From NCBI GenBank assembly GCA_011364925.1, contig RDOA01000025.1:1-49261 (forward strand): a stretch of 49,261 bases of DNA, given 5' to 3'. The stretch comes from Promethearchaeota archaeon (GTDB lineage: Archaea; Asgardarchaeota; Lokiarchaeia; Sigyniarchaeales; SOKP01). The stretch's first letter is position 1. The number at the start of each line of letters is the position of its first letter. Below, piece after piece: positions 13,365 through 45,703 of the stretch. Both the position numbers and the translations under genes were made by a program. The notes beneath the pieces were generated by a model that had not been told where the DNA came from, ran no database searches, and worked only from the letters and a program-made list of their open reading frames with translations.

Positions 13365-14699
13365 TTAAATTAAATCAATATATTGTTTTATGTTAAATTT
13401 TCGTTTCATTCCATCATAGCTCATATATCTTATTTTCCCAAAGACTTTTCTCTCGCCCCAAGCTCTATCATGAACACCTCCGATAGACCATGCTATTCCA
13501 GCATAGCCATTAGGGTCTCTTCCATCAAGTTCATATTTATCGTTGAGATAAATTGCGTATTCTACAGCCTTTTCAGGAGTCTCTGTCCATTCAAGAATTT
13601 TTTTTGCCCAATACATCCTAAGATAACCATGCATTTTCCCTCGTTTTATCATTTGACGTTGAGCAGTGTTCCATAGATCATCATGAGTTCTAGCTCTCTC
13701 TAATTCCTCCAAAGTATATTTATAGTCTCGTTTATCTTTTAAATGCTGATTCAAAGTCTCTATTGCCCAAGATTGAAAACTGGCAGTCGTATCATAATCA
13801 GGAGAATAAAAGCAGAAGTTATCTGATAATTCTTTACGTACAATTATTTCGTCATAAAACGAACCCTTGAGATTTATAATTCTTTTTGTCTTCGTCGCTT
13901 CTAGAACAACTCTTTGAGAAGAAATTTGTCCAAAATGTAAATATGGAGATAGATCGGAAACAGAATTTAAATTTGGATCGTTTCTTTCCCTAGTATAATT
14001 TCTAAGCTTTTTCTCAACGAATAATTTCAACACACCTCTTGCTTGATCCTCTCCTGGTCTTATCCAATCAAATGTGTATTTTGGATTATCTTCTGAAACG
14101 AAATTTCTTAGTTTTACCCAATTAACTTCGCTAAAGTTTTCTTTCCAAGAGTACGGGTGTTTCTTAATCTCTGGAAATTCAACTAAAAACTCCGCTAATA
14201 ACTTACTTATTTTTGAACGTATAGTATAGGCTGCATACTCTTTTTTATTAGATGCAATCCAACAAGGGACTATATTATGTGTATCTACTTCACTAAATGA
14301 TACGTTTAATTTACTTCTTAACGATTCAATCCAGTTCCTTTTTATTTTTAATGGAGAAAAGTCTGTTATTAACATACCTATTTTGTATTCCTCAATAAAA
14401 TTCGTTAAAACAGTTCTTGGATCTCCCTTTAGTGCCACAAATGTGATATTAAGTTCAATACAATCTTTTTCTATAATTTCTAATCCATCAAGCATAAAAT
14501 CAAAGATTCTTGGTTCCGCACCTAAAAATTCTTGCTGCAAACAAAAAACAACGATAATTGGTTGTTTATGATTTAATGCTAGTTCTTGAGCATAAATTAA
14601 AGCCCAATTATCTCTAATTCTTTGATCTCGACTCATCCAATATAAGATCGGACCACTGATCTTCTTCTCAAGTATTCTTTTGACTCTTCTATAGTCCAT
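13365..14699 (-). CDS. phrB: class II CPD DNA photolyase
   Basis: YWMSRDQRIRDNWAL, LSPYLHFGQIS, ELSDNFC, GKMHGYLRMYWAKKILEW, DGRDPNGYAG, HDRAW, GKIRYM; SD AGGGGA. Confidence 0.96.
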   Translation of the reverse strand: MDYRRVKRILEKKISGPILYWMSRDQRIRDNWALIYAQELALNHKQPIIVVFCLQQEFLGAEPRIFDFMLDGLEIIEKDCIELNITFVALKGDPRTVLTNFIEEYKIGMLITDFSPLKIKRNWIESLRSKLNVSFSEVDTHNIVPCWIASNKKEYAAYTIRSKISKLLAEFLVEFPEIKKHPYSWKENFSEVNWVKLRNFVSEDNPKYTFDWIRPGEDQARGVLKLFVEKKLRNYTRERNDPNLNSVSDLSPYLHFGQISSQRVVLEATKTKRIINLKGSFYDEIIVRKELSDNFCFYSPDYDTTASFQSWAIETLNQHLKDKRDYKYTLEELERARTHDDLWNTAQRQMIKRGKMHGYLRMYWAKKILEWTETPEKAVEYAIYLNDKYELDGRDPNGYAGIAWSIGGVHDRAWGERKVFGKIRYMSYDGMKRKFNIKQYIDLI

Positions 14700-14723
14700 A
14701 ATAAGAAATCCCCTTACACTTTT

Positions 14724-15425
14724 TTATGCTAATGAAAAATCTACGGCTGCTTGTAAATGAATTTTTAAGGTATCGAAAAGAGGAACACTTAAATCTTCGG
14801 ATTTAATTAATATAGGAAGTTCCGTACATCCTAGAATTATCCCTTCTGCTCCATTCTGTTTTAAATTTTCAATTATTTTTAATATTTCTTTCTTAGTCGC
14901 TTCAATGAATTTCCCTTTTGCAAACTCATTGTAAATTGCGTTATTAATGTAGTCTCTTTCATTTTTAGCGGGAGTTAAAGCGTTAATGTCATAAGTCTTC
15001 ATAAGTTTCTCAATATAAAAACTTCCTTCCATCGTGAATTTTGTCCCTAATAAGCCGACATCTTTAATATTCATAGATTTTATAACCTTTGCAGTCTCAT
15101 CAACTACATTAATGAGTGGGATTGTAATCTCCACCTCAATTTTGGGTGCAATTTTGTGCATAGTGTTAGAGCAGATTACGATCGCTTTACTTCCAGCTAA
15201 TTCAAGTTTTTTACATATTATAATCATTGTTTTCAATAGATCATCCCATCTATTTTGTTCCTGCAAGAGCAGAACTTCCGCAAAATTTACAGAATACAAT
15301 AAGATCTCTGCTGAATACCACTCACCGAGCCTATCTTTAACCATTTCGTTAATAATTCTATAATAATCGATTGTATTCTCCCAGCTCATGCCCCCAATTA
15401 AGCCTAACAACTTCAAAGTCATCAA
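14724..15425 (-). CDS. aspartate/glutamate racemase family (RacX/YgeA-like)
   Basis: GLIGGMSWE, ICSNTMH, GLLGTKFTM, ILGCTEL. Confidence 0.93.
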   Translation of the reverse strand: MMTLKLLGLIGGMSWENTIDYYRIINEMVKDRLGEWYSAEILLYSVNFAEVLLLQEQNRWDDLLKTMIIICKKLELAGSKAIVICSNTMHKIAPKIEVEITIPLINVVDETAKVIKSMNIKDVGLLGTKFTMEGSFYIEKLMKTYDINALTPAKNERDYINNAIYNEFAKGKFIEATKKEILKIIENLKQNGAEGIILGCTELPILIKSEDLSVPLFDTLKIHLQAAVDFSLA

Positions 15426-15440
15426 TCCTATATTTCAATC

Positions 15441-15457
15441 AAAATAAAAAAAAAAAA
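15441..15457 (-). terminator. poly-T tract, archaeal terminator-like, after heliorhodopsin
   Basis: T12-A-T4 on the minus strand immediately after the HeR stop. Confidence 0.45.
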
Positions 15458-15458
15458 T

Positions 15459-16271
15459 TTACGCTGGTTGTAATACTCCAGCGAAGACTAACCATGCTAA
15501 AAGAGTTTTAGACCACAAACTAAGTAGAATGTATCCACGCTCTCCGTACAAGTAATCCTTCCACTTTCCTATTTTTTTATACTGTAAAATCATGTTAATA
15601 GGAAACGTATTGAAGAAAAATATATACGATCCAAAGATAGCCCAAACAAACCATGGAATTTCAGAAACATCTCCATTCCCAAAGAGATATAAAAGAATGA
15701 TTACCCAAGGAATAACTCCAGCAAACACTCCAATGTAAAACGCTGTCCACTTCGTTTTCTCAGTTGTTTGGTTGTGAATTTCCATCATCAAACCTAGAAG
15801 ATTCATTACCGTATTGATACAAAATATCAAAATCATACTTGAAAGGTCATAGACTCCAAAAAACCACGCAATCAAAACTATCATTAAGGATGAACTTAAA
15901 GCGTATTCAAACCACCGAAAGTAATTGATCCTTTCTCCCAGTTTTCTATTATAGAAATTGTTCACTTTAGGTAATACGATTAAAAAATGAGCAATAGCTG
16001 AGAGTAATAAGAACATCGCAACTAAAGGACCTATAGGGACTGTTGTTAATTGTTGGTAATCTGGCATGAGACTTGGAGGTATTACCGCATCATTGTAATA
16101 GAGATAAGATGTAGTGATCGGTAACTTAAAATCTCTTATTTCAGGAATTGTATAAGATAAAATCACCATTATGCTCGCTTGTATCAAGTGTAGAAATCCC
16201 ATAATCAGGTTAAAACGTCTTAAATACGAAAAACTGATTTTTGAATCAATTTTTTCATTCATATTTTTCAC
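15459..16271 (-). CDS. heR: heliorhodopsin
   Basis: LRRFNLIMGFLHLIQ, AHF, INYFRWFEYALSSSLM, FPINMILQY...GKW.DYLYGE..YILLSLWSKTLLAW (SxxxK retinal lysine). Start is GTG 16271 or ATG 16262. Confidence 0.96.
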   Translation of the reverse strand: MKNMNEKIDSKISFSYLRRFNLIMGFLHLIQASIMVILSYTIPEIRDFKLPITTSYLYYNDAVIPPSLMPDYQQLTTVPIGPLVAMFLLLSAIAHFLIVLPKVNNFYNRKLGERINYFRWFEYALSSSLMIVLIAWFFGVYDLSSMILIFCINTVMNLLGLMMEIHNQTTEKTKWTAFYIGVFAGVIPWVIILLYLFGNGDVSEIPWFVWAIFGSYIFFFNTFPINMILQYKKIGKWKDYLYGERGYILLSLWSKTLLAWLVFAGVLQPA

Positions 16272-16448: not shown

Positions 16449-17366
16449 CTAACTGTTAGTTTTAAATTGATTTATTATTTCAGATAGTTTTACATCGGGA
16501 TGGTGATATTTTTTATTATACGCTACGATCTCCCCATAAACTGCATCATTAGGACACCACACATAACACGCATAGCATGTTTCACAGCGATGCTGCCATA
16601 CAGGGCTATTATTTACCATTTTGATGTTTCCCACCGGGCATAATTTTGAGCAAATTCCACATCCATTGCATTTTTCGTTGACAGAAAAACTTTTATCTGC
16701 AAGATGGATAAGATCTTCAAAATCAAATAGGGTTTTGCCTTCAGAATTCTGCTTAGATACTTCAGCAAGGTTTTTATATCGAGAACGGAATGTGAACTTG
16801 GATAGACTAACAAGAGGCTTAAAAGGTGATCGTGTTGTCTCAAATATTCCTTCTTCGCGATTTTTTATACTTTTTATTATGATCTTAAGTTTTTTCTCCC
16901 ACGCATCGTAGAGTTCTTTTTGCTTATTGGAATCCTTTAGGACTTCTTCTCCAGAGTTAATCTCCCTACGAAAAAGCGCTCTCTTCATTTTTAATCCCGG
17001 GGAATATGGAACCGACAGTTGTATCGCAAACCCTGATGCTAATTTTATACCCTTTTGCTCTAGTAAAAGCTGTAATTGTTCAATTGTTTTCCTTGGACCA
17101 CCTGCGTGAGTACACACTGCAAACAAGTATGTAGAATAAGGGATTTTTAGCTTCTTCACAAACCTTTTAAGTATAAGTGGAATACCTCCAAAATCTGCGT
17201 AAAAAACGGGGAATATAATTCCGACAATATCTGCTGTAGTCGTTATGGTCTCTTTTTCGATAGTTGAAGATATCGAAATTAGTTCCCCATCCAAAATCCT
17301 TGCGATATCTTTTGCAACAACTAACGAATTTCCTGTTCCAGTGAAATAATAAATTTCTGAATTCAT
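16449..17366 (-). CDS. EFR1-type flavodoxin/4Fe-4S ferredoxin fusion
   Basis: YYFTGTGNS N-terminus; CNGCGICSKLCP and CETCYACYVWCP; YHHP. Confidence 0.9.
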   Translation of the reverse strand: MNSEIYYFTGTGNSLVVAKDIARILDGELISISSTIEKETITTTADIVGIIFPVFYADFGGIPLILKRFVKKLKIPYSTYLFAVCTHAGGPRKTIEQLQLLLEQKGIKLASGFAIQLSVPYSPGLKMKRALFRREINSGEEVLKDSNKQKELYDAWEKKLKIIIKSIKNREEGIFETTRSPFKPLVSLSKFTFRSRYKNLAEVSKQNSEGKTLFDFEDLIHLADKSFSVNEKCNGCGICSKLCPVGNIKMVNNSPVWQHRCETCYACYVWCPNDAVYGEIVAYNKKYHHPDVKLSEIINQFKTNS

Positions 17367-17531
17367 TCACTCATTTTCTAAATTTTTAAGTACAAAAGTC
17401 TTCGGTTACTTTTTAATTATTTTAAATAAAGTAATAACATTAGCGGATTATATTATCTTTCGTAAATATTCAATTTTTGCTCGATTATTGGTTTACGAAT
17501 TCTTTAAAATCCAATAAACTATTATTTTACT

Positions 17532-18155
17532 ATGCTATCAAAGGAAGATATAATAATTTTAGACAAAACTCAAATTAAAGCTGCAGGGGAAGTTTTGGGT
17601 CGTGCTTTAAAAGATGATCCTGTTACTATTTGGGATATTCCCGATAAAGAGAAAAGACATGCAGTGATAAAACATGTGTTCCAATTAACAAGTTGTTGGG
17701 GTGTGAAATTCGGCGAAACAGATGCGACATCTGAAAATTTAGAAGGTATTGCTGTATGGCTTCCTTACATCAACAAAGAATTTAAGGCAATAAATAACTT
17801 TGGATGCGTAATTAAATCTAAAATGTATAAATTGGGAAGACAAGCTTCCAAGAGGATAATACCTATCGAAGACCATAACGCAAAAATACATCGGAAATTT
17901 GCTCCTGCTGATCACTGGTACCTTCAAACGCTTGGCGTGGATCCCATTTATCAAGGAAAGGGATACGGAAGTTTGTTGATGGAATACATGCTTGAGAAAA
18001 TTGATACTTCTAAACCTCTACCTATCTTTCTCGAGACTTCTACCGAGATAAATGTGAAATTCTATAAAAGGTTCGGATTTGAGGTAGTTAGTGAAGGAAT
18101 TATCCCAGATACGGATGTTGAGCAGTGGCATCTCCTCCGAGGTGCTAAACATTAG
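17532..18155 (+). CDS. GNAT N-acetyltransferase
   Basis: HWYLQTLGVDPIYQGKGYGS, FLETS...NVKFYKRFGF. Confidence 0.92.
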   Translation: MLSKEDIIILDKTQIKAAGEVLGRALKDDPVTIWDIPDKEKRHAVIKHVFQLTSCWGVKFGETDATSENLEGIAVWLPYINKEFKAINNFGCVIKSKMYKLGRQASKRIIPIEDHNAKIHRKFAPADHWYLQTLGVDPIYQGKGYGSLLMEYMLEKIDTSKPLPIFLETSTEINVKFYKRFGFEVVSEGIIPDTDVEQWHLLRGAKH

Positions 18156-18259
18156 GAGTGAATTTTTATAAGCTTTAAGGATTGAAACATAACAAAATAT
18201 AATCCTTAATTTTATTACTCTATTTTTTTCTCTACCTAAATAGTAAGAGGTGGAATTAT

Positions 18260-18874
18260 TTGGCTAGAATTAATGATGCTAATCAAGCAGAACCCAACTA
18301 TTTTTCGAGACTTTATAAATCCAACCCACCCTGGGATATTGGACACCCACAAAAAGCGTTTCAGCGATTATCTGAAGAGCTTAAAGTAAATGGAAGGATG
18401 CTGGATGTGGGTTGCGGTACGGGAGAAAATGCCTTGATGTTTGCCAAACTTGGATTTGATGTAGTCGGTATTGATTACGTTAAGTACGCCATCAATGATG
18501 CTATAGATAAAGCTAAGAAACAAGGGATTAATGCAGAATTTTATGTAATGAACGCTTTAGAACTCACAAACTTAGAACAAAAGTTTGATATTGTTATTGA
18601 TTCGGGATTATTTCATACATTTAGCAATTCTGAGAGGATCTTATTCAGAACAAGTCTTTCTAATGTTTTATCTATCAAGGGAACATACTATATGCTTTGC
18701 TTTAGCAATATTGAACCCCCTGGGTTTGGTCCAAGAAGAATTCGCAAGGAGGAAATATATGAGACTTTCACCGATAATTGGAATGTAATTTCAATTAAAC
18801 CTGAAATTTTCGAATCAACTTTTGGAGATGCACATTCTTGGTTGGCTAAAATACAATACCTTGGTAAAAGTTAA
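18260..18874 (+). CDS. class I SAM-dependent methyltransferase (TPMT/TehB-like)
   Basis: PPWDIGHPQ, LDVGCGTG, DSGLFH; SD GAGGTG. Confidence 0.9.
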   Translation: MARINDANQAEPNYFSRLYKSNPPWDIGHPQKAFQRLSEELKVNGRMLDVGCGTGENALMFAKLGFDVVGIDYVKYAINDAIDKAKKQGINAEFYVMNALELTNLEQKFDIVIDSGLFHTFSNSERILFRTSLSNVLSIKGTYYMLCFSNIEPPGFGPRRIRKEEIYETFTDNWNVISIKPEIFESTFGDAHSWLAKIQYLGKS

Positions 18875-18898
18875 ATTAAAACTAAAATTCGAAGGTTT

Positions 18899-19738
18899 AT
18901 GGCAATGGAAAATTTAGATCTTGACACGAAGATAGAATTAAATAATGGAGTAAAAATGCCCGTATTTGGTTTTGGGACTTTTCGTGCAAAATCTGGAAAA
19001 GAAACTTATAACTCTGTCTCTCACGCTTTAAATGTTGGTTATAGATTGATTGATACAGCTACCCGGTATAAGAATGAAAGTGATGTTGGGAAAGCAATAA
19101 ACGATTCTGGTATCTCTAGAGATGAGATTTTTGTAACTACTAAATTGTGGAATTCTGACCATGGGTATAGCTCTGCGTTAAAAGCGTTTGACACGAGTCT
19201 TAAAAAACTTGGTCTTAGTTACATCGATTTATATTTAATTCACTGGCCAGTAAAAGGGTTGAGAATGGATTCTTGGAGGGCTTTAAAAGAATTATTACAA
19301 AAGGAGCGATGTAGGGCTATAGGTGTGAGTAACTATACAATCAATCATATTAAAGAAATTACTGACGACGATGGAGTGATTCCAGCTGTCAACCAGGTAG
19401 AATTTAGTCCATATACATATCAGAAAGAGTTGTTAGATTTTTTAAATTCCAAAAACATTAAACTGGAAGCTTATAGTCCCTTAACTAAGGGTTTCAAATT
19501 GAAGGATCCGAAGCTTATCGAAATAGCTGAAAAATATTCTAAGTCTTCGGCTCAGATATTATTACGATGGGCTTTACAAAAAAGCATCATAGTGATTGTG
19601 AAATCCTCACACCCCCAGAGAATTGAGGAAAATGCAAATGTTTTTAATTTCCAAATTTCTTCTGATGATATGTTAATTTTAGATAGTTTTGACGAAAATC
19701 TTCGTACTGGTTGGGATCCCACTACTATGACATCTTAG
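18899..19738 (+). CDS. aldo/keto reductase (AKR5-like)
   Basis: LNNGVKMPVFGFGT, IDTA.RY.NE, TTKLW, DLYLIHWP, IGVSN, NQVE, AYSPL. Confidence 0.95.
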   Translation: MAMENLDLDTKIELNNGVKMPVFGFGTFRAKSGKETYNSVSHALNVGYRLIDTATRYKNESDVGKAINDSGISRDEIFVTTKLWNSDHGYSSALKAFDTSLKKLGLSYIDLYLIHWPVKGLRMDSWRALKELLQKERCRAIGVSNYTINHIKEITDDDGVIPAVNQVEFSPYTYQKELLDFLNSKNIKLEAYSPLTKGFKLKDPKLIEIAEKYSKSSAQILLRWALQKSIIVIVKSSHPQRIEENANVFNFQISSDDMLILDSFDENLRTGWDPTTMTS

Positions 19739-31764: not shown

Positions 31765-32856
31765 TTAAAAGTTTGATTTTTTCTTATTGATAATGAAAAT
31801 TATTCCGATGATGAAGCCCATGCTACCGAATAAAACGAGAAACACATCATATCCGGGTATTCCTGAAGGCGTTGGTAGACAACTCATAAGAGGGAATCGG
31901 TCTTGACTTCCGGCAATTCCCGTTATATTATATGGAACATCTCCTATTCCATCACCGTTCGCATCAGTCCCATTATAAGCGTCCCAATAATTTCCTCTCG
32001 CTCCATTGTCCCAAGTATTATCAAATCCATTATCGTTAGCATCCTCAGTGTTAGTGAAAAAACAATTCTCATAGAACCTGTTATCTCCACACAATGTACT
32101 AATGAATACTCCAAGAATAGAGCTGTTGGTAATGCGATTACCTCTCACTGTATTATTGTCTGAGAACGCGTCTATATTAATCCCTATGGTATTGTTATAA
32201 AAGTTGTTATCGGAGATGGTGTTAAATATAGTCGCTCCACCTAAGAAATATATCCCCGAGTCAAGATTATACGCAATTACATTATTCGATATCAAATTAT
32301 TCTTCGTAATTCCCATTGTCGATTCGACGATGATTCCGTAAAAACTACCTCTGGAAGCGTTATTATTTTGAACGACATTATAACTCGAATTAAACAGCCA
32401 TACTAAAGCTCCAGTAAACGCATGCATCCAATTTTTAGAAATGACTCCGTTCGTAGTGTTATATAGCCAGATCCCTGCCCAAGAAGAATGACCCTTAAAC
32501 TCACAATCTTTGATAACAAAATGCTTCCTTGAATTCATAATTGCCAGTTGATTCGTAGAGATAGTAGGTGCATTAAAGTAAATCTCTGAGATCACATAAG
32601 GATTTAATAGAGTGCCTGAGCCAGTACAATACCCTTGAGCTTTCGCCCAAGTCCAATTTATTGGGCTACCGGGTAAATCATTGATTACTAATGTCGTATT
32701 TATCTCAGTGAGAGCAGAGGTGTTCAATTTACTTGCTGGACTCTGTTTTCTATCGGAGCCAATAGGTGTTGAGATAAGGCTTAGAAACAGAGGCATACTA
32801 ACGCTTGAAACAATTAAAATAAAAATTATAGAAAATGTACTTTTTCGCATCTTCAT
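31765..32856 (-). CDS. secreted NosD/CASH right-handed beta-helix protein with Loki-CTERM-like anchor
   Basis: N-terminal signal/TM; G.GT..NPYVI; Asn-rich beta-helix repeats; GNYWD.Y.G.DANGDGIG..PY; IPGY-TM-KKK tail. Confidence 0.88.
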   Translation of the reverse strand: MKMRKSTFSIIFILIVSSVSMPLFLSLISTPIGSDRKQSPASKLNTSALTEINTTLVINDLPGSPINWTWAKAQGYCTGSGTLLNPYVISEIYFNAPTISTNQLAIMNSRKHFVIKDCEFKGHSSWAGIWLYNTTNGVISKNWMHAFTGALVWLFNSSYNVVQNNNASRGSFYGIIVESTMGITKNNLISNNVIAYNLDSGIYFLGGATIFNTISDNNFYNNTIGINIDAFSDNNTVRGNRITNSSILGVFISTLCGDNRFYENCFFTNTEDANDNGFDNTWDNGARGNYWDAYNGTDANGDGIGDVPYNITGIAGSQDRFPLMSCLPTPSGIPGYDVFLVLFGSMGFIIGIIFIINKKKSNF

Positions 32857-32970: not shown

Positions 32971-34068
32971 TTAAGCTTTTAAAATTTTCTTCTTTCTTAT
33001 CACAATAATTCCAATAATAGAGGCAATTCCTGCAATGAAAACGATAATTAGACTATATCCCGGGATTCCACTCGGAGTTGGTGGAGCAGGACACTTCATG
33101 AGGGGAAAGAGATCTTGACTCCCGGCACTTCCCGTGATATTATAAGGAATTTCACCTATACCATCGCTGTTTGCATCAGATCCTGTGTAATTATCCCAGT
33201 AATTTCCTTTCGCACCGTTATCCCAAAAGTTACCTAATCCATTGTCAATCGCATGAAGTGTATTTGTAATGAAACAATTTTCAAAGACTAAATTGTATTC
33301 ACTAAGAGTATTTAAAATTACACCTGTTACATAGCTATTCCTAATTACATTCCCTTTAATGGTGTTATTAGTTACAAATGAGTTAACATCAATCCCTAAT
33401 GTATTGTTACTAAAATCGTTATCAGATATAGTATTAAAAATGGAACCGATTCTAATCTGTACACCAGCGTCATTATTATTAGCGATTACATTGTCCGTAA
33501 CCACATTATCTCTAGAGATACCCCCCGCAGAATCAATTAATACACCATAATAAGAACCATAGGAAGCGTTATTGTTTCTAATAACATTGTCGCTCGAATT
33601 AAATACCCAAACAAGAGCTCCAGTATTTGGATGCATCATATTACCCGTAATAACTCCGTTCGTAGTGTTGGCTAATTCAATGCCGGCAAATTGACTGTGT
33701 CCCTTAAACTCACAATTTCTTACAATAAAATGCTTTCTTGAGTCAATAATCGTTAAACTATTATAACCAGCTAAGGATGTGTTGAAAAATTTTCCCGAAA
33801 TGATGTAGGGGTTAACTACTGTACCTAAACCCGTACAATACCCTTGATCCTTTGCCCATGTCCAATTTAAAGGACTACCGGGAAGATCATCGATGATAAT
33901 TGTCGTGTTTATCTCCGTGAGAGCAGAGGTGTTCAAATTACTTACCTCACTTTGCGCTCTATCGAAATTCCTAGCAGTTGAGATAAGCATAGGAAATATT
34001 GGCGTGATAAGACTCGAAATAAATAATATTAATAGTATTGAAAATGTTGTCTTTCGCATCTTAATCAT
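32971..34068 (-). CDS. secreted NosD/CASH beta-helix protein with Loki-CTERM-like anchor (tandem paralog)
   Basis: Collinear with 31765..32856 (LNTSALTEINTT, DLPGSP.NWTWAK.QGYCTG, GNYWD); IPGY-TM-RKKK tail. Confidence 0.88.
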   Translation of the reverse strand: MIKMRKTTFSILLILFISSLITPIFPMLISTARNFDRAQSEVSNLNTSALTEINTTIIIDDLPGSPLNWTWAKDQGYCTGLGTVVNPYIISGKFFNTSLAGYNSLTIIDSRKHFIVRNCEFKGHSQFAGIELANTTNGVITGNMMHPNTGALVWVFNSSDNVIRNNNASYGSYYGVLIDSAGGISRDNVVTDNVIANNNDAGVQIRIGSIFNTISDNDFSNNTLGIDVNSFVTNNTIKGNVIRNSYVTGVILNTLSEYNLVFENCFITNTLHAIDNGLGNFWDNGAKGNYWDNYTGSDANSDGIGEIPYNITGSAGSQDLFPLMKCPAPPTPSGIPGYSLIIVFIAGIASIIGIIVIRKKKILKA

Positions 34069-34283: not shown

Positions 34284-36410
34284 ATGGAGTACGATGAAAA
34301 AGATGAAGAACTCTCTGATGAAGAACTGCTAGAAAAAGAAGTTCGTGAATTAGAAAGATTGGATAAGGAAATACGAGAAAGAGAAAGATTACAACGGGAA
34401 ACACTTAAACAAAAACCATTGGAACAAGAACCATTGGAACAAGAAATTTTGGAACAAGAGAGATTGGAACAAGAAAGACTGGAACAAGAGAGACTGGAAC
34501 AAGAGAGACTGGAACAAGAGAGACTGGAACAAGAAAGATTGGAACAAGAAAGACTGGAGAGAGAGAGACTAGAAAGGGAAAGGATTGAACGAGAGAGACT
34601 AGAGAAACTAATATTGGAGAGTAAGTTATATCCAAATAATTCGCTTTTCATTATTCCAAGTTGGGGAGCTTTACTAGGGTATCCCACTTTAGGGACTTAT
34701 GTTCACCATCCCGTCTCGAAAATCGAAACCGATATTGTTATCTTTTTTAGTGGCTATGATTATTCAATTGAAACGACAAAGGGAAGGCTTTATTACTTAT
34801 TCGGTTTGGGATATCACTACCTCAAGTTTGAATTAGAATCTGGGAAATACGTGACCGATAATAGAATCCTAACGGGATTAATTTTACCAGATTTTGTATA
34901 CGATCATATGGCTACTTCGTCAAACATCACTTTAGAAGAAGACCCGGATGTAATTATCGCAGAGAAAGTGATTAAAGTACCAATCAATTTATCTAATAAA
35001 CCCGAGAATCACTTAACTTTTATAAAAGGCGCTTTAATGAGGAATGTGTTCATTCCAAATAAAGATATTATTTTAGAGATGATGGATACGATTCGTCAAA
35101 CCGATTCTTATTTGGTCTCAAGCTATGGGCATCAGCTATTAAGTTCACATTGGGACGAGTATAACCAGATTTTGGTTTCTGAAAAAATGAGACCCAAAGC
35201 TGAGTCTTCTTACTTCCATCCAACCGCTGGGCTAGAAGGAATTAATTTTAAAGCTGACGAAATATTAGACGAAACGATTTCAACCATTAATCTGAGCATT
35301 ATTGAAGACAATATCAAAACTTTAAAAGATGTTTATGCTAACCTCGAGTTTGACCCGATGTATCTCTTTTCAATATTAGAAAAAGCGTCGTCTAAACTTG
35401 GTTCAGATACTCCAATATATTCGAGACAGAGAGATAGCTTAGGTAAAACAAAATCAAAAGAATCTATTTTTGTTTCAGCAGAAGAACACCTGTTTGAATT
35501 CAAAAGTTGGCCAAGTGAATTCCCGAGAAAGGCAAAGAAAGAGCCAATTCCTTTACCTAAAATAGTAGAACAACCTTCGTACCAAGAAATCAAAGAAAGA
35601 CCAAGCTATAATATCGAAACCAAAGGCGCCAGAGACCTTGAACATGAAAGCTTCGAACTAGATAGTTTAAAATCCAAAAAAGTTGAATTTAAACCTTTAC
35701 CGTCTCCACCAACAGCAGAAATTAAGACTATTTTATATTACTTAAAAAATGTAATCGAAGGCGATTACGAAATGAAATCTCTTGGACAAGCGTTTGAAAT
35801 TGCAAGAGAAAGCGTACGACAAATCGGCGTAAGCGCTACCACTTTACATCAGAAAAAAGTTTGGGAGATGAGTAAATACGCAAATATTTACGAAAAGAAA
35901 GATCCTGGTTTTGCTTTACCATTAAAAGAAAAATCGGAATTAATTCAAAAAGTTGACGAGTGGATTTTTGAAATTGAAGAAGCTGAGAGACTGGAAAGAG
36001 AAAGACTAGAAAAAGCTCGTTTAGAGAAAGAACGATTGGAACGACTAGAACGAGAGAGAATAGAGAGAGAAAAACGAGAACAAGAAAGACTAGAAGCAGA
36101 ACGGTTAGAGAAGATTCGTATCGAAAAGGAACGAGAAGAACAAGAACGATTGAAACGAGAAGAGCTTGACAGAATTGAAAGAGAGAAACAAGAGGAACTA
36201 AGACTAGAGAAGGAACGATTAGATAAAGAACGAGAAGAACAAGAAGCCCTTGAAAAAGAAAAGTTAGAACTTGAAAGATTGAAACAAGAAAGAAAGGAAA
36301 AAGCAAAAGCAGCGAAAAAGGAAGCTAAAAAGCGAAAGAAATTAGAGAAACAGAAGAAAAAGATCGAGAAAAAGAAGTTAAAAGAACAAAAAAAGTTAAA
36401 GAACCTCTGA
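34284..36410 (+). CDS. 708-aa hypothetical protein with N-terminal EQERL repeats, globular core and C-terminal ER/K-rich helix
   Basis: Long ORF; charged repeats at both ends flank about 450 aa of normal-complexity sequence. Confidence 0.85.
34421..34600 (+). repeat. 15-bp coding tandem repeat (GGAACAAGARAGAYT), about 12 units
   Basis: GGAACAAG recurs every 15 nt from 34421 to 34541 (9 units), followed by three ERERL/I variants. Confidence 0.92.
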
Positions 36411-36480: not shown

Positions 36481-37506
36481 TTATTCTTCTACTTCTACTT
36501 TTTGCCTTCTTCGAAAATAGACGAGATAAATTGTCAGAAATACCACAAATCCAACCGCTATTGATGTATAAATAATTATCCCACTAAATGGAGTCAATTC
36601 AGTTGGGGAGCCAGGATATATGTCAACCGAATTCGCAGGACCATCAATTTCATATGGACCAATCCCAAAATAATCAGACCACGCATTTCCATAATAACTT
36701 CTACTATCGTACCACCTATTGTTGGATCCTTCGTCGTATCCCTGACTAGAAGGACTCCCCTTAGGAATGCCGTCAATTTCATATGTGTCAGACCAGGCGT
36801 TTTCTTCAAAGATGTTGTGGTGGATTTCATTGTTACTCGATGTACCTACTAACGCAACACCGTGCTCCTTCGAGTTCCTGATCCGGTTATGCGTAATGAG
36901 ATTCGAATCCGAATAGCGAATGTTAATCCCTTGGTAATTACTATCGTAGATGTAATTATAATAGATTATACAGTTATTTACATTATTCAGATGAATTCCT
37001 TGCATGAAGTTTGTACAAACATTTTTGATCACAGTACAGTTTCGCATGTCCCCCAAACCAATACCGCCGCCGTCTCCAGTTAGTGAAACTATTATGTTAC
37101 TTATAATTTTCGAGGTTCCGCCTGTTACATTATTTAATAGAATCCCTACCCAATCCGAATATATTACAGACCCATTAATGACAAAAAACAAGTTGGTATT
37201 CCTTATTTCAATCCCCACTGCATTTACACCCTGCGATGTGATATTGTATCCTTCAATAATAAACGGGTCCCCTCTCGTTCCCGTCCCGCTAAAATTGTAG
37301 CTTCCAAAAGCTCCATTATTAGTGATAACAATCGGAGGGTGGACAAGAAAACTCTGAGAAGTTGAAGGAACTTTTAATATATTCTTATCTGTAGAAGTGG
37401 AATCCAGCTTTAGTTCAGTCAGACTGCCCTTAAAAGCGCTTCCAATAATCATTAATAATATTATCAAAATAACGCATTTACCTAAATTTCTTACTCGCAC
37501 TTTCAT
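36481..37506 (-). CDS. secreted, C-terminally membrane-anchored NosD/CASH beta-helix protein
   Basis: Signal peptide; HPPIVIT, GTGTRGDPFIIEGYNI; beta-helix repeats; GNAWSDY; TM followed by RRRQK. Confidence 0.85.
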   Translation of the reverse strand: MKVRVRNLGKCVILIILLMIIGSAFKGSLTELKLDSTSTDKNILKVPSTSQSFLVHPPIVITNNGAFGSYNFSGTGTRGDPFIIEGYNITSQGVNAVGIEIRNTNLFFVINGSVIYSDWVGILLNNVTGGTSKIISNIIVSLTGDGGGIGLGDMRNCTVIKNVCTNFMQGIHLNNVNNCIIYYNYIYDSNYQGINIRYSDSNLITHNRIRNSKEHGVALVGTSSNNEIHHNIFEENAWSDTYEIDGIPKGSPSSQGYDEGSNNRWYDSRSYYGNAWSDYFGIGPYEIDGPANSVDIYPGSPTELTPFSGIIIYTSIAVGFVVFLTIYLVYFRRRQKVEVEE

Positions 37507-37630
37507 TCTCCCTTTACCAATAGCTTAATATTCTATTATTTATGTCACTTTAAAAATTGTCTTATTTGAAAACTTAATGAGAGAGGACAGATGCCGCAAA
37601 CTTAAATTATTAACAACACATCTATCTAAT

Positions 37631-38071
37631 ATGAATCGAAGTCCAGTCAATAAGAAAGTGAAACTAAAAATTTACACCGATGGGGCTGCACGCGGTAATC
37701 CCGGACCCGCAGCTAGTGCATTTATATTTGTTCGTGATGGAACCGTTGCCCATGAGGAATGTGAGTTCATTGGGACTACAACAAACAACACTGCCGAATA
37801 TAGAGCAATAATTAACGCATTGAAAGCTGCTGAGAGCTTTTCGCGGGGGCACCTTCAAGTGTACTCCGATAGCAACTTAGCAATACAGCAAATCAATAAG
37901 AAGTGGAAAATAAATTATCCACACTTATCGAAACTATGTGCAGAAGTGGATAAATTAAGCGAAAAATACGAAAGGGTTGAGTTTTTTCATGTCGGACGGA
38001 ATAATCCTTACATCCAAAAATGCGATAAACTGTGTAATGAACGGTTAGATGCTGAAGGATTTAAAAATTAA
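37631..38071 (+). CDS. rnhA: ribonuclease HI
   Basis: YTDGAARGNPG, TNNTAEY, YSDS.L, HVGR.N....D. The start may be 37577, 37631 or GTG 37658. Confidence 0.93.
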   Translation: MNRSPVNKKVKLKIYTDGAARGNPGPAASAFIFVRDGTVAHEECEFIGTTTNNTAEYRAIINALKAAESFSRGHLQVYSDSNLAIQQINKKWKINYPHLSKLCAEVDKLSEKYERVEFFHVGRNNPYIQKCDKLCNERLDAEGFKN

Positions 38072-39862: not shown

Positions 39863-41941
39863 TTAGATACTCGTTAAATCAATCGTAGTATATACCGCTG
39901 GGTGGTCTGATTGGTAATCACCAGTATAATGGATAAATGTAACGGATGCATTCAATTGTGACGATACAAATATGTGGTCTATTCTTTCATCTGGGATTAT
40001 ACGGTCGCCGGGTAGATTTGGATCAACAACTGCATATGCTGGATTAGAATTGTATACTAATTCCCAACAATCGTAGAGTTGAGCAACCGTTATATTATAT
40101 TGCTCAGTATTTGGCTCAAAATTAAAGTCACCCATTAAAATGACGTTTGATCTTCCCGCGGTGACGGTTAAAAGATTCTCTTGTTGGACGATCTGAGTTC
40201 TATCACCTAACGTTGTGTTTCTATAATTACCGAGGTGGGTGACGAAAATGTTGAATGTATTGGTACCAACAATAATCTGAGCCCAAATTGCTGCAGTTTG
40301 TTCTCCTACGCTTTCCATATAAAAGGTGCGAGGATTCAGAATTGGATATTTTGATAATAAGGCGATTCCAAACGTACCAGTAACAGTCTTAGGTCCGAAA
40401 TACGAATAATACCCCAATGATTCGCTAATATACCGGACAATATCGTTATTACCGTTTGCTATTCGATCTGTGTCTGACTCTACTAAGCCAACAATATCTG
40501 GGTTTAAGATATCAATAACGGCACGCTGTCCCTCAAAATTCAAATTTCCAGGTTCATCAGCTCCTTGTTGGATATTGTAGGATAGTATTGAAAGAGTATC
40601 ATCATTAGCAGTAGGGCGAATATGGGGTATTCCAAGAACTCCGCAACTTATTATCGTTCCTAAGGCGATAATTACGATTACGCCAATAGTTTTAAATATT
40701 TTCCCTGTGTTAATCCTAGAAATCTTGTTAAAGATGAAAGCTTCTCTCTTAACTAACAATAACGGCCAAACTATGAACGCACCTATAACTAAATATACAA
40801 GCCAAATCATATCTCTAAAGAGTGGCCCAACTAATGGGATGTAATCCCACACAGTAGTAAAAACGGCTGAGAATATGATAAGAACCGAAAATAAACTCGA
40901 CGCAAAAAAACCTGCTCCCATTTTCCGAGTTGAGGGTCTGCTTCTGAACAATTCCCTTAGTAAAATTACGAAATCAAACAAGACAATTGGCGATAAAACA
41001 AGCATTATGTAAAGAACTATATGGTGTAAAATCGTGGTTTCAGGAGCGAGTATTGGATAACTGGTTATAAAGACAAAGGGAATTTGATTAAGACCAATCG
41101 TGAGCACAAGCAATGTCACAAATATGATATTCCATAGCAATATACCTTTACTTGGGATTTTCGTGATTAAATTCGGCTTTACCGCTGCAACGATAATAAA
41201 CCCCGTGATCGCCAATATTACTATCGTGATAATAGCCAAGTAATCCCCCTCTGTCCATCGCGCAATGACGACAGGACTACTAAAAGCGAAATAACACAGA
41301 ATTAGTATGCTGAATAAGCCCATACACAGAGCTAAAATTTTCCATTTACTACCGTATTTTCCTTTATCGCTTGTCTTTTCCGTATCAGCTTCAGTTTTAG
41401 GAGGCCGCAATAAATTTATGGTTAAAATCGCCGCAATAATCGCAAGAATCCATCCAATCCATTGAAACCCAAATGTTAAGGTCAAATCAACCGAATAGTT
41501 AAGCGTTCTAAACAATATTGACAACGCTAGTCCAAAACCTAAACTAATTCCGAGCGATAATCCGCCTTCTTCACTACTCTTATGAGACCTTTTTTGAAGA
41601 TACACCGCCAAAAATAGTAAAAAGGTGCCAAGACCAATTCCGGTAAGAATCATCTTTATTTGGGTACCAAAAAACGGTTGTAAAACTCGGCAAACGATCG
41701 TAATCTCAGCAAGCACCACCATCGCTTTTTTAGAAAGTCCCTTTTTAAAAAACAGCAGCACGATTGGAGAAAGTAGAAATAATACCGCTGCGATATTTTC
41801 GTTTATTCCCGTGATAATAAGGTTTAAAAGATAAATCGACTCGATAAACTTGGTTATCTGTTCGAAAAAGAAGAAAAACAGAATGCCAAAAAGGACTATT
41901 TCAGAATAATATTTGCCTAAATATTTTTTATAGATTTCCAT
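39863..41941 (-). CDS. polytopic membrane protein with C-terminal EEP domain, CWH43/PGAP2IP-like
   Basis: About 430 aa of TM segments, then SYNIQQG, DIVGLVESDTDRIANGNND, YFGP, GIALLSKYPI, THLG, GDFN, IDHI, SDH. Confidence 0.85.
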   Translation of the reverse strand: MEIYKKYLGKYYSEIVLFGILFFFFFEQITKFIESIYLLNLIITGINENIAAVLFLLSPIVLLFFKKGLSKKAMVVLAEITIVCRVLQPFFGTQIKMILTGIGLGTFLLFLAVYLQKRSHKSSEEGGLSLGISLGFGLALSILFRTLNYSVDLTLTFGFQWIGWILAIIAAILTINLLRPPKTEADTEKTSDKGKYGSKWKILALCMGLFSILILCYFAFSSPVVIARWTEGDYLAIITIVILAITGFIIVAAVKPNLITKIPSKGILLWNIIFVTLLVLTIGLNQIPFVFITSYPILAPETTILHHIVLYIMLVLSPIVLFDFVILLRELFRSRPSTRKMGAGFFASSLFSVLIIFSAVFTTVWDYIPLVGPLFRDMIWLVYLVIGAFIVWPLLLVKREAFIFNKISRINTGKIFKTIGVIVIIALGTIISCGVLGIPHIRPTANDDTLSILSYNIQQGADEPGNLNFEGQRAVIDILNPDIVGLVESDTDRIANGNNDIVRYISESLGYYSYFGPKTVTGTFGIALLSKYPILNPRTFYMESVGEQTAAIWAQIIVGTNTFNIFVTHLGNYRNTTLGDRTQIVQQENLLTVTAGRSNVILMGDFNFEPNTEQYNITVAQLYDCWELVYNSNPAYAVVDPNLPGDRIIPDERIDHIFVSSQLNASVTFIHYTGDYQSDHPAVYTTIDLTSI

Positions 41942-44707: not shown

Positions 44708-45703
44708 ATGCTAAATACGGAGAAAATAAAAGGGTGTTTTTGGGGTTTGGTTTTAGGTGATGCTTTAGGACAACCTGTAGAATTTTTCTCAATAGAAAAG
44801 ATTCGAGAGATGTATGGGGAAAATGGAATTCAAGCCCCGAAGGAAAATGCTATTTGGACCGATGATACCGAGATGACGATGGCAGTTACTAAAGCTCTCA
44901 TAACTATGGGTGGAGTGGAAAGATTTGTTGAATTGGATGATAATGATATCGGTGAAATATTTGCTAAGGAATTTATTACTTGGCTTGATAATCCAGGATA
45001 CGCTCCGGGAATAACAACTACTGGAGCTGTTGGCATTCTAAAAGCTCAAGGCCCCAAAGAATGGAGGATATCGGGTAAAAATGACTCAAAAGGTTGTGGA
45101 ACAGTAATGCGTGCAGCACCACTAGGACTTTGGTTTTCAAATGCTTTAAAACCAGAGTTACCCGCAGTTGATGGTCTATACCATAAAACTTTAGCTAAAG
45201 TATCCACTATACAGTCTGAAATTACACATGGTCATAAAGCTGCCACTGCCGCAGCTCTTGCAGGTTCTTATGCTGTAGTTCTCGCCATAAATGGTACGTC
45301 TCCCGATAAGATGATCCAGCCAATTCAAACCTATTGTAATCATATTCACCCTGATTTTAACAATGCGATGGAAAGACTAAAAACAAGCCTACTTAATCGG
45401 AGCGATGAAACATTTAAGACCGATCTAGAAGCACTTACTTATATAGGACAGGGTTGGGTTGGAGATGAAGCATTTGCTATGGCTCTCTATTGCGCAATCC
45501 AATATCCAAACGATTTAAAATCATGCCTTCGCGTGGCTGTTAACCACGATGGGGACAGCGATAGTGTTGCGTGCATTGCTGGCGGTATCCTTGGTGCCTT
45601 CAATGGTGTGTCCATCATTCCAAAAGATTGGGTAGATAAATTAGCTGAAAAGGAAAGAATGATGAGTTTTTTGCATCAAATAATAGGATTTTTCAAAGTC
45701 TAA
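44708..45703 (+). CDS. ADP-ribosylglycohydrolase (DraG/ARH family)
   Basis: GDALG.PVEF, WTDDT, GCGTVMR..P, ITHGH, GDSDS..IAG. Confidence 0.95.
   Translation: MLNTEKIKGCFWGLVLGDALGQPVEFFSIEKIREMYGENGIQAPKENAIWTDDTEMTMAVTKALITMGGVERFVELDDNDIGEIFAKEFITWLDNPGYAPGITTTGAVGILKAQGPKEWRISGKNDSKGCGTVMRAAPLGLWFSNALKPELPAVDGLYHKTLAKVSTIQSEITHGHKAATAAALAGSYAVVLAINGTSPDKMIQPIQTYCNHIHPDFNNAMERLKTSLLNRSDETFKTDLEALTYIGQGWVGDEAFAMALYCAIQYPNDLKSCLRVAVNHDGDSDSVACIAGGILGAFNGVSIIPKDWVDKLAEKERMMSFLHQIIGFFKV

Follow-up and report, generated by a model that had tools for sequence, protein, structure and literature searches.

What might a relative of the lipid-remodelling factors that act on eukaryotic glycosylphosphatidylinositol (GPI) anchors be doing in an archaeon? 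The question is raised by one gene on contig RDOA01000025.1 of a Promethearchaeota archaeon (assembly GCA_011364925.1), of which the whole stretch from position 1 to 49,261 was analysed (hereafter ‘the window’). The encoded protein consists of a long membrane region followed by a domain of the endonuclease/exonuclease/phosphatase (EEP) superfamily, and profile comparisons indicate homology over its whole length to PGAP2IP and, in fungal Cwh43, to the C-terminal two-thirds. Its fold, predicted topology, intact active site, homology and distribution are directly supported. We favour, with some reserve, the view that it is an extracytoplasmic, metal-dependent phosphodiesterase, coupled to a major-facilitator (MFS) fold, that acts on the head group of a membrane lipid or glycolipid.

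The gene is a single open reading frame of 692 codons that begins with ATG (Table 1), and its start codon can be considered sound because homologues align from residue 1 over 100% of the protein. The closest of these are 85–92% identical, followed by a long series down to 40%, all of them aligned over the whole length, and the named relatives come from Promethearchaeota/Lokiarchaeota, Hod-, Heimdall-, Thor- and Helarchaeota as well as from Anaerolineales. Among approximately 185,000 species genomes, 318 related loci were found, while a profile search returned 506 family representatives at E ≤ 1e-30; the 150 matches listed by this search all had E < 1e-97 and all came from the prokaryotic family. 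Within a sample of 151 Asgard genomes, 57 contained some match and about 30 a full-length copy. The host genome comprises 3.9 Mb in 112 contigs, the window being contig 33, and is estimated to be 100% complete. G+C content is approximately 34% throughout the window, which rules out a haloarchaeon; the haloarchaeal, PGF-CTERM frame drawn upon in an earlier note on this DNA is thus not supported, the host belonging to the low-GC, Loki-type Asgard archaea.

The strongest sequence signal lies in the EEP domain. Here, the model of the C-terminal nuclease-like domain of PGAP2IP (PF23226; Pfam cut-off 27 bits) scores 93.9 bits as opposed to 61.6 bits for the generic EEP model PF03372, which is matched over its whole span. 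PF23226 is likewise matched by all 34 aligned homologues and by 71 of 71 full-length homologues, yet it is not restricted to eukaryotes, given that it also finds a match in Caulobacter among the control genomes. The eight metal-binding and catalytic residues of the EEP domain (N456, E488, H569, D605, N607, D655, D679 and H680) are invariant in the 34 homologues, which share 40–74% identity, and the motif strings highlighted earlier were located at residues 481–500 (DIVGLVESDTDRIANGNNDI), 514–517 (YFGP), 525–534 (GIALLSKYPI) and 546–547 (GE). Six of the invariant residues—N456, E488, D605, N607, D679 and H680—correspond to the six metal-binding positions that were found to matter by mutagenesis of a GlcNAc phosphodiesterase (GlcNAc-PDase; PMC10704324). 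Judging by these residues, the active site is intact and apparently belongs to an active two-metal phosphodiesterase. The earlier note had reported both the canonical catalytic residues and a close resemblance to yeast Cwh43. The more extensive comparison agrees with it on the residues and supports a specific affinity to PGAP2IP/Cwh43 over generic EEP proteins, the affinity being further backed by the profile–profile alignment described below (hhalign E 6.5e-62).

Since the EEP superfamily is rich in nucleases, it may be asked whether the protein is simply a membrane-anchored extracellular nuclease or generic phosphatase. Foldseek searches against the PDB retrieved EEP enzymes only, with Tdp2 at the top, and NCBIfam models of exodeoxyribonuclease III matched at about 24 bits; these scores, however, fall far under the respective cut-offs of 99–280 bits, and it is the PGAP2IP-type model that scores highest. 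Superposition of the EEP domain by VIA-align retrieved 4ruw with a Z-score of 24.8, the neutral sphingomyelinase of humans (8j2f) with one of 23.2 and sugar-phosphate EEP proteins of Bacteroides, and the nearest solved relatives by sequence include a mannose-6-phosphatase. Moreover, a nuclease or generic phosphatase would have no need of a conserved 12-helix membrane domain, which in this family is co-inherited with the EEP domain and also occurs as a separate, coupled gene. A nuclease-like role is hence hardly credible.

What, then, is the membrane region? An AlphaFold2 model built from the 34-sequence alignment (local confidence score pLDDT 84.4, predicted template modelling score 0.88) places 13 helices in front of an alpha/beta domain that starts at residue 449, so that the long polytopic N-terminal region noted before takes shape as a part of roughly 440 residues. 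A Pfam scan gave nothing significant in the first 445 residues, including no match to PF07690 (MFS_1), a family that matches two of the 34 homologues with a best E of 1.7e-4, and Foldseek found no match for the membrane part in the PDB. Superposition of residues 1–405 by VIA-align, in contrast, returned more than 20 MFS entries with Z-scores of 16–19.2, 315–358 aligned residues and root-mean-square deviations of 4.1–5.3 Å. The best were VAChT (Z 19.2 over 343 residues) and NorA (Z 18.9), and OCTN2, FucP, SotB, ferroportin and XylE were also among them. According to the model, therefore, the two six-helix bundles share the fold of MFS transporters; alignment of the two halves by hhalign detected no internal sequence duplication.

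Loops rich in lysine and arginine alternate along the chain in a way that predicts a cytoplasmic N-terminus and an extracytoplasmic EEP domain. The loop between the two bundles counts seven such residues in 26 and has pLDDT values below 50 at residues 182–193, and helix 13 (residues 409–437) is predicted to re-cross the membrane, so that the EEP domain would sit outside. The C-lobe contains two conserved motifs, F-S-S-P-x-V-I-A-R-W (residues 220–229) and F-T-T-V-x-D-Y-I-P-x-V-G-P-x-F-R-D (residues 361–377). Within the membrane region, polar residues that are invariant (R145, S149, D152, S222, R228, W229, T230, Q286, T362, D366, Y367, R376 and D377) are mostly found at predicted outer helix ends or in outer loops.

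Whether homology to PGAP2IP extends beyond the EEP domain was addressed with the Pfam models of its two six-helix units, PF23022 and PF23021 (cut-off 27 bits each). The sole match to PF23022 in the host genome (E ≤ 10) is this very open reading frame, of which residues 23–151 align to model positions 1–128. PF23021 matches three of the 34 homologues and 15 of 72 family representatives (best E 4.4e-7), and it is the sole non-EEP family that recurs in these representatives, unrelated membrane families being found in at most two members. In a set of 33 Asgard genomes, four out of ten weak PF23021 matches fall inside the homologous gene, all in one common register. Across 400 Asgard genomes, strong matches to PF23021 were few and fell in proteins of 599–663 residues; the cut-off was passed in eight of the 400. 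Five Asgard proteins satisfy all three models (PF23022, 29–43 bits; PF23021, 64–107 bits; PF23226, 76–111 bits), and this rare, core-like group provides a bridge to the window protein: hhalign of the family profile against the core-like proteins gave a probability of 100 and E 6.5e-62 over 609 columns, and the membrane part alone still reached a probability of 98.9% and E 2.2e-17 over 333 columns. The window family and the core-like group have these motifs in common: LNL, located in the first outer loop, F-S-S-P-x-V-I-x-R-W and F-T-x-V-x-D-Y-x-P-x-G-x-x-F-R. In the ESM Atlas, a eukaryotic cluster carrying PF23021, PF23022 and PF23226 appeared at rank 8 with a score of 0.96, a query with the membrane part by itself yielded no more than a weak lead (score 0.82), and the three-domain eukaryotic clusters of PGAP2IP type range from 608 to 983 residues. 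It is because the register of PF23022 and PF23021, the split genes described next, the alignments to core-like proteins and the ESM Atlas agree that homology can be assigned to the whole length of the window protein. If any Asgard proteins are to be singled out as probably nearest to eukaryotic PGAP2IP, the core-like proteins are the foremost candidates.

In several Thor-like genomes, the two parts are encoded separately, a gene for a 12-helix protein of about 400 residues coming first and a second gene, which adjoins or overlaps it, specifying a membrane-anchored EEP protein of about 281 residues. One of these split membrane proteins reaches the PF23021 cut-off (27.1 bits), and together they align to the membrane region of the window family with an hhalign probability of 99.4% and E 8e-22. 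That Thor-like genomes carry both parts as adjacent or overlapping genes argues that the membrane and EEP parts work together.

A first tree of 48 prokaryotic proteins (LG+C20, quick search, rooted for display on the core-like group) recovered the window family as one clade with SH-aLRT support of 100, apart from the core-like group, the split forms and two groups of full-length paralogues that are 26–29% identical. A genome labelled as Hodarchaeota carries on one contig (G136:C13) two full-length members of different subfamilies about 1 kb apart (14163–16052 and 17028–19046; L034/L012), which are 26% identical to each other. Altogether, the Asgard superfamily of MFS-like plus EEP proteins includes at least five subfamilies among those counted, with fused forms, split forms, tandem paralogues and the rare core group. 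The window clade itself covers Loki, Heimdall, Hod, Thor and Hel lineages as well as a nested clade made up mostly of Chloroflexota. In a second tree of 84 proteins, sampled from the 80 loci that resemble the query most and rooted on long branches, 17 bacterial sequences grouped together with support of 100, in a position embedded among Asgard clades; 14 of them are from Chloroflexota and one each from a Nitrospirota, a Bacteroidota and a Bacillota bin. In this sample, then, bacterial members nest within the archaeal ones rather than the reverse, so that the nesting within bacterial homologues which the earlier note had named as a refuting outcome is not observed, and it seems from the branching that a single transfer took the gene from Asgard archaea to Chloroflexota and a few other bacteria. 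A protein from a Candidatus Deferrimicrobium bin (L078) is placed outside the main bacterial clade as sister to a Helarchaeota protein (L106) with support of 100; this pairing stems either from a further transfer or from faulty binning.

The same phylogeny does not sustain the idea of the gene as ‘the’ precursor of GPI lipid remodelling. The Asgard proteins to which the eukaryote-derived models are best suited lie outside the clade formed by the window family. These models score much higher on the core-like group than on the window family and, as judged by this difference, the window gene is best described as a side branch of the superfamily.

How could such a protein work? We infer the substrate class and the coupling of the two domains from the features described above. 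The MFS-like domain would take a membrane lipid or a lipid-linked glycan into an outward-facing cavity, whose walls would carry the conserved polar residues of the outer helix ends, and would offer its phosphodiester head group to the EEP site. There, the head group could be cleaved or transferred to another acceptor, in a manner similar to sphingomyelinases and to GlcNAc-6-phosphocholine/ethanolamine phosphodiesterases, the architecture being analogous to that of other enzymes in which an outer phospho-transfer domain is joined to a membrane domain. The existence of bacterial members suggests that the recognised part would be the head group or glycan and not the tail of an ether lipid.

The MFS fold also invites a reading in which import is the purpose: glycoconjugates of the environment or the cell surface would lose a sugar phosphate or phosphorylated head group to the outer EEP domain, much as with GlcNAc-PDase, and the MFS domain would import the product. 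The high Z-scores against true transporters fit such a scavenging device, as does the presence of the mannose-6-phosphatase among the nearest solved relatives, and those relatives that have been characterised are phosphodiesterases which are secreted and specific for sugars (PMC10704324). The best-linked neighbours, all confined to one Loki subclade, are a gene for an MFS_2 sugar transporter, directly downstream of which the gene lies, and nearby genes for enolase-superfamily and beta-keto-acid cleavage (BKACE) proteins. Likewise, an ENA metagenome relative of 982 residues (P0121) possesses an extra C-terminal region with a weak match to glycoside hydrolase family 16 (E 0.0024), a hint that the substrate of this lineage may be a glycan. 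However, the MFS_2 neighbourhood is confined to that single subclade, and the window protein lacks an MFS_1 match that even its homologues show only in the two weak cases given above. The conserved polar residues, moreover, are at the outer face instead of mid-membrane, and the eukaryotic homologues are lipid-remodelling factors of the endoplasmic reticulum and not importers. We therefore regard scavenging as unlikely and retain the head-group phosphodiesterase as the preferred reading.

Several observations nonetheless weigh against a head-group phosphodiesterase. The PF23022 match of the window protein reaches 14.5 bits (E 0.075) and thus stays below the cut-off, and PF23021 finds no match either in the window protein (E ≤ 1) or in the host genome (E ≤ 10). 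To our knowledge, there is no prokaryotic member with a known substrate, product or partner. The lipids of the bacterial members are ester-linked, which excludes a substrate specific to archaeal ether tails. The MFS-like domain could be a true transporter instead of a lipid-presenting platform. In addition, the biochemical role of the EEP domain even in Cwh43/PGAP2IP has been called vague (PMC10704324). Gene context offers little to offset these points: across the 80 related loci, no neighbour family occurs in more than 12, and no pathway could be named.

Cwh43 swaps diacylglycerol for ceramide on GPI anchors. By extension, the window protein might be a prokaryotic, GPI-like remodelase of anchor lipids that serves C-terminally lipid-anchored surface proteins, for instance those encoded by its neighbours. 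The four C-terminally anchored proteins noted earlier in the vicinity are indeed there, since three NosD-like proteins and a trypsin-like/CARDB protein carry C-terminal membrane anchors. The trypsin-like/CARDB gene shares the strand of the PGAP2IP-like gene and lies 128 bp upstream of it; the PGAP2IP-like gene itself converges with a pair of ABC-2 exporter genes. The NosD-like proteins, encoded 2–8 kb from the gene, have signal peptides and end in SGIPGY (P-S-G-I-P-G-Y) or SGIIIY, a hydrophobic helix and a basic KKK or RRR tail. As the host genome encodes an archaeosortase-family protein (contig C91, L126), they may be candidate archaeosortase substrates with a non-PGF motif, to judge from their tails. 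Together with whole-length homology to PGAP2IP/Cwh43, a catalytic domain predicted to face outward and the Asgard origin of GPI synthesis components reported in a 2026 Nature paper (PMC12872458), this setting would suit a remodelase.

Yet, closeness to anchored proteins is not kept in the 80 related loci, and the distribution of archaeosortase does not follow the gene. As detected by TIGR04178 (PF09721 missed archaeosortase even in Haloferax), it was found in none of 26 genomes of the Thor-like family f7, five of which have the gene, as opposed to 19 of 19 genomes of family f12, none of which has a full-length copy. The link to the neighbouring anchored proteins that had been drawn in the earlier note is accordingly not upheld. 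PIG-W/GWT1 (PF06423), PIG-N (PF04987), PIG-U (PF06728) and PIG-M (PF05007) found no match in the host genome, nor did they in the control genomes; C13 peptidase matches are present in the host. Furthermore, the subfamily occurs in Chloroflexota too, and the window protein falls outside the clade closest to the eukaryote-derived models. All in all, GPI-type remodelling by the window protein is unproven and, in our view, very improbable. In a looser form, the widespread window subfamily might act at the outer face on a membrane-anchored glycoconjugate and remodel its lipid or its phospho-head group, and eukaryotic GPI lipid remodelling would then have arisen from an older Asgard lipid-editing machinery without a GPI pathway, a scenario that we consider distinctly doubtful.

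Two further proteins of the host genome, L124 (G000:C36:38995–39630) and L125 (G000:C30:38354–38977), have six helices and about 210 residues and match DUF998 as well as Frag1 (PF10277), the latter above its cut-off. They were considered as a possible PGAP2/Frag1 partner and rejected: DUF998, the prokaryotic member of the Frag1 clan, fits better, and they are unlinked to the gene. Frag1-clan matches occur in 40 of the 151 sampled Asgard genomes, namely in 22 of about 38 with the gene and 18 of about 113 without it, a difference that is confounded by relatedness and was not used as support. The remaining genes around the locus are listed in Table 1 along with the parts of the protein and its informative relatives.

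Table 1. Positions of the gene, the parts of its product, flanking genes and related Asgard loci (nucleotide positions refer to the window; related loci are given by genome and contig)
Feature	Location	Strand	Basis
Whole gene, PGAP2IP-like membrane EEP protein, 692 aa + stop	39863..41941	minus	Open reading frame list, translation, full-length homologues
Residues 1–178, first six transmembrane helices, N-lobe of MFS-like fold (predicted), weak PF23022 (6TM_1st_PGAP2IP) match	41408..41941	minus	AlphaFold2 helices, PF23022, MFS structural matches (residues 3–401)
Residues 179–198, lysine-rich low-confidence loop between the six-helix bundles, predicted cytoplasmic	41348..41407	minus	K/R count, pLDDT
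Residues 199–396, C-lobe with the second set of six transmembrane helices, homology to PF23021 (6TM_2nd_PGAP2IP)	40754..41347	minus	Invariant columns, PF23021 register of relatives, hhalign
Residues 397–445, basic cytoplasmic loop (predicted) and helix 13	40607..40753	minus	AlphaFold2 helices, positive-inside loop count
Residues 446–692, EEP domain of PGAP2IP type, complete metal-binding and catalytic set	39866..40606	minus	PF23226, PF03372, invariant residues, structural matches
NosD/beta-helix surface proteins, signal peptide and C-terminal anchor	31765–32856, 32971–34068, 36481–37506	minus	
Extremely Lys/Glu-rich 708-aa protein, no Pfam match, between NosD-like genes	34284–36410	plus	
Stand-alone RNase H/RVT_3-like gene, flanking region	37577–38071	plus	
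Trypsin-like protease + CARDB, one transmembrane helix, cytoplasmic zinc ribbon, C-terminal anchor, 600 aa	42070–43872	minus	
ADP-ribosylglycohydrolase gene, flanking region	44708–45703	plus	
Core-like Asgard proteins L127–L131	G194:C683, G169:C224, G111:C285, G172:C448, G170:C375		
Split-form loci L041, L043/L133, L134, L042/L135 (Thor-like family f7)	G005, G131, G393, G027		

Cwh43/PGAP2IP is among the least understood factors of GPI-anchor maturation, and the chemistry of its EEP domain is undefined. Full-length relatives from prokaryotes constitute simpler proteins for biochemical and structural work, and nature provides them in several forms: fused, split, and closer or less close to the eukaryotic protein. 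The Asgard relatives also bear on the recent claim that the eukaryotic GPI machinery is Asgard-derived, made in the 2026 Nature paper, in the accessible parts of whose text and supplements CWH43/PGAP2IP is not named (PMC12872458). On its own, the window gene adds little in this respect, as it does not belong to the Asgard branch closest to the eukaryotic models and its surroundings give no clue to a substrate.

How does the protein compare with systems that are already known? Lipid transporters of the MFS fold, such as LtaA, LplT and MFSD2A, offer a functional analogy for its membrane domain, but the resemblance is one of twelve-helix fold class only, and none of the three was among the matches of the structural search. 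Neutral sphingomyelinases and bacterial sphingomyelinase C share the EEP fold (8j2f, Z 23.2; 7cne, Z 19.6) and act on a lipid phosphodiester at the membrane surface, yet they have no MFS-like domain and are only about 18% identical in sequence to the EEP domain of the window protein.

An architectural counterpart is mammalian PGAP2IP (product of the gene CWH43), together with the C-terminal part of fungal Cwh43; with these the window protein has in common the order of parts—six plus six helices, then a non-cytoplasmic EEP domain—and the size class. Its EEP domain passes the family-specific Pfam cut-off and its transmembrane part is homologous via the core-like Asgard intermediates, whereas it stays below both transmembrane-domain cut-offs and belongs to a clade apart from these intermediates. 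Fungal Cwh43 additionally has a Frag1/PGAP2-like N-terminal domain that the window protein lacks, and the host genome, like the controls, is without the four PIG matches.

As for enzymes of defined activity, clustering of EEP proteins by Fossa et al. (J Biol Chem 2023) puts Cwh43p and PGAP2IP together with the GlcNAc-6-phosphocholine/ethanolamine phosphodiesterases, a family then new, and the authors pointed to an ‘Asgard/Chloroflexus group’, as yet unexplored, whose size and domain organisation differ (PMC10704324). The characterised enzymes are soluble, secreted proteins of 219–357 residues that act on GlcNAc-6-phosphocholine or -phosphoethanolamine, unlike the window protein with its 13-helix membrane domain. 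All the same, the six metal-binding residues are shared, and the Asgard and Chloroflexota make-up of the ‘Asgard/Chloroflexus group’ matches that of the window family. The window gene is, in other words, a further member of an uncharacterised family that the literature has already flagged (PMC10704324).

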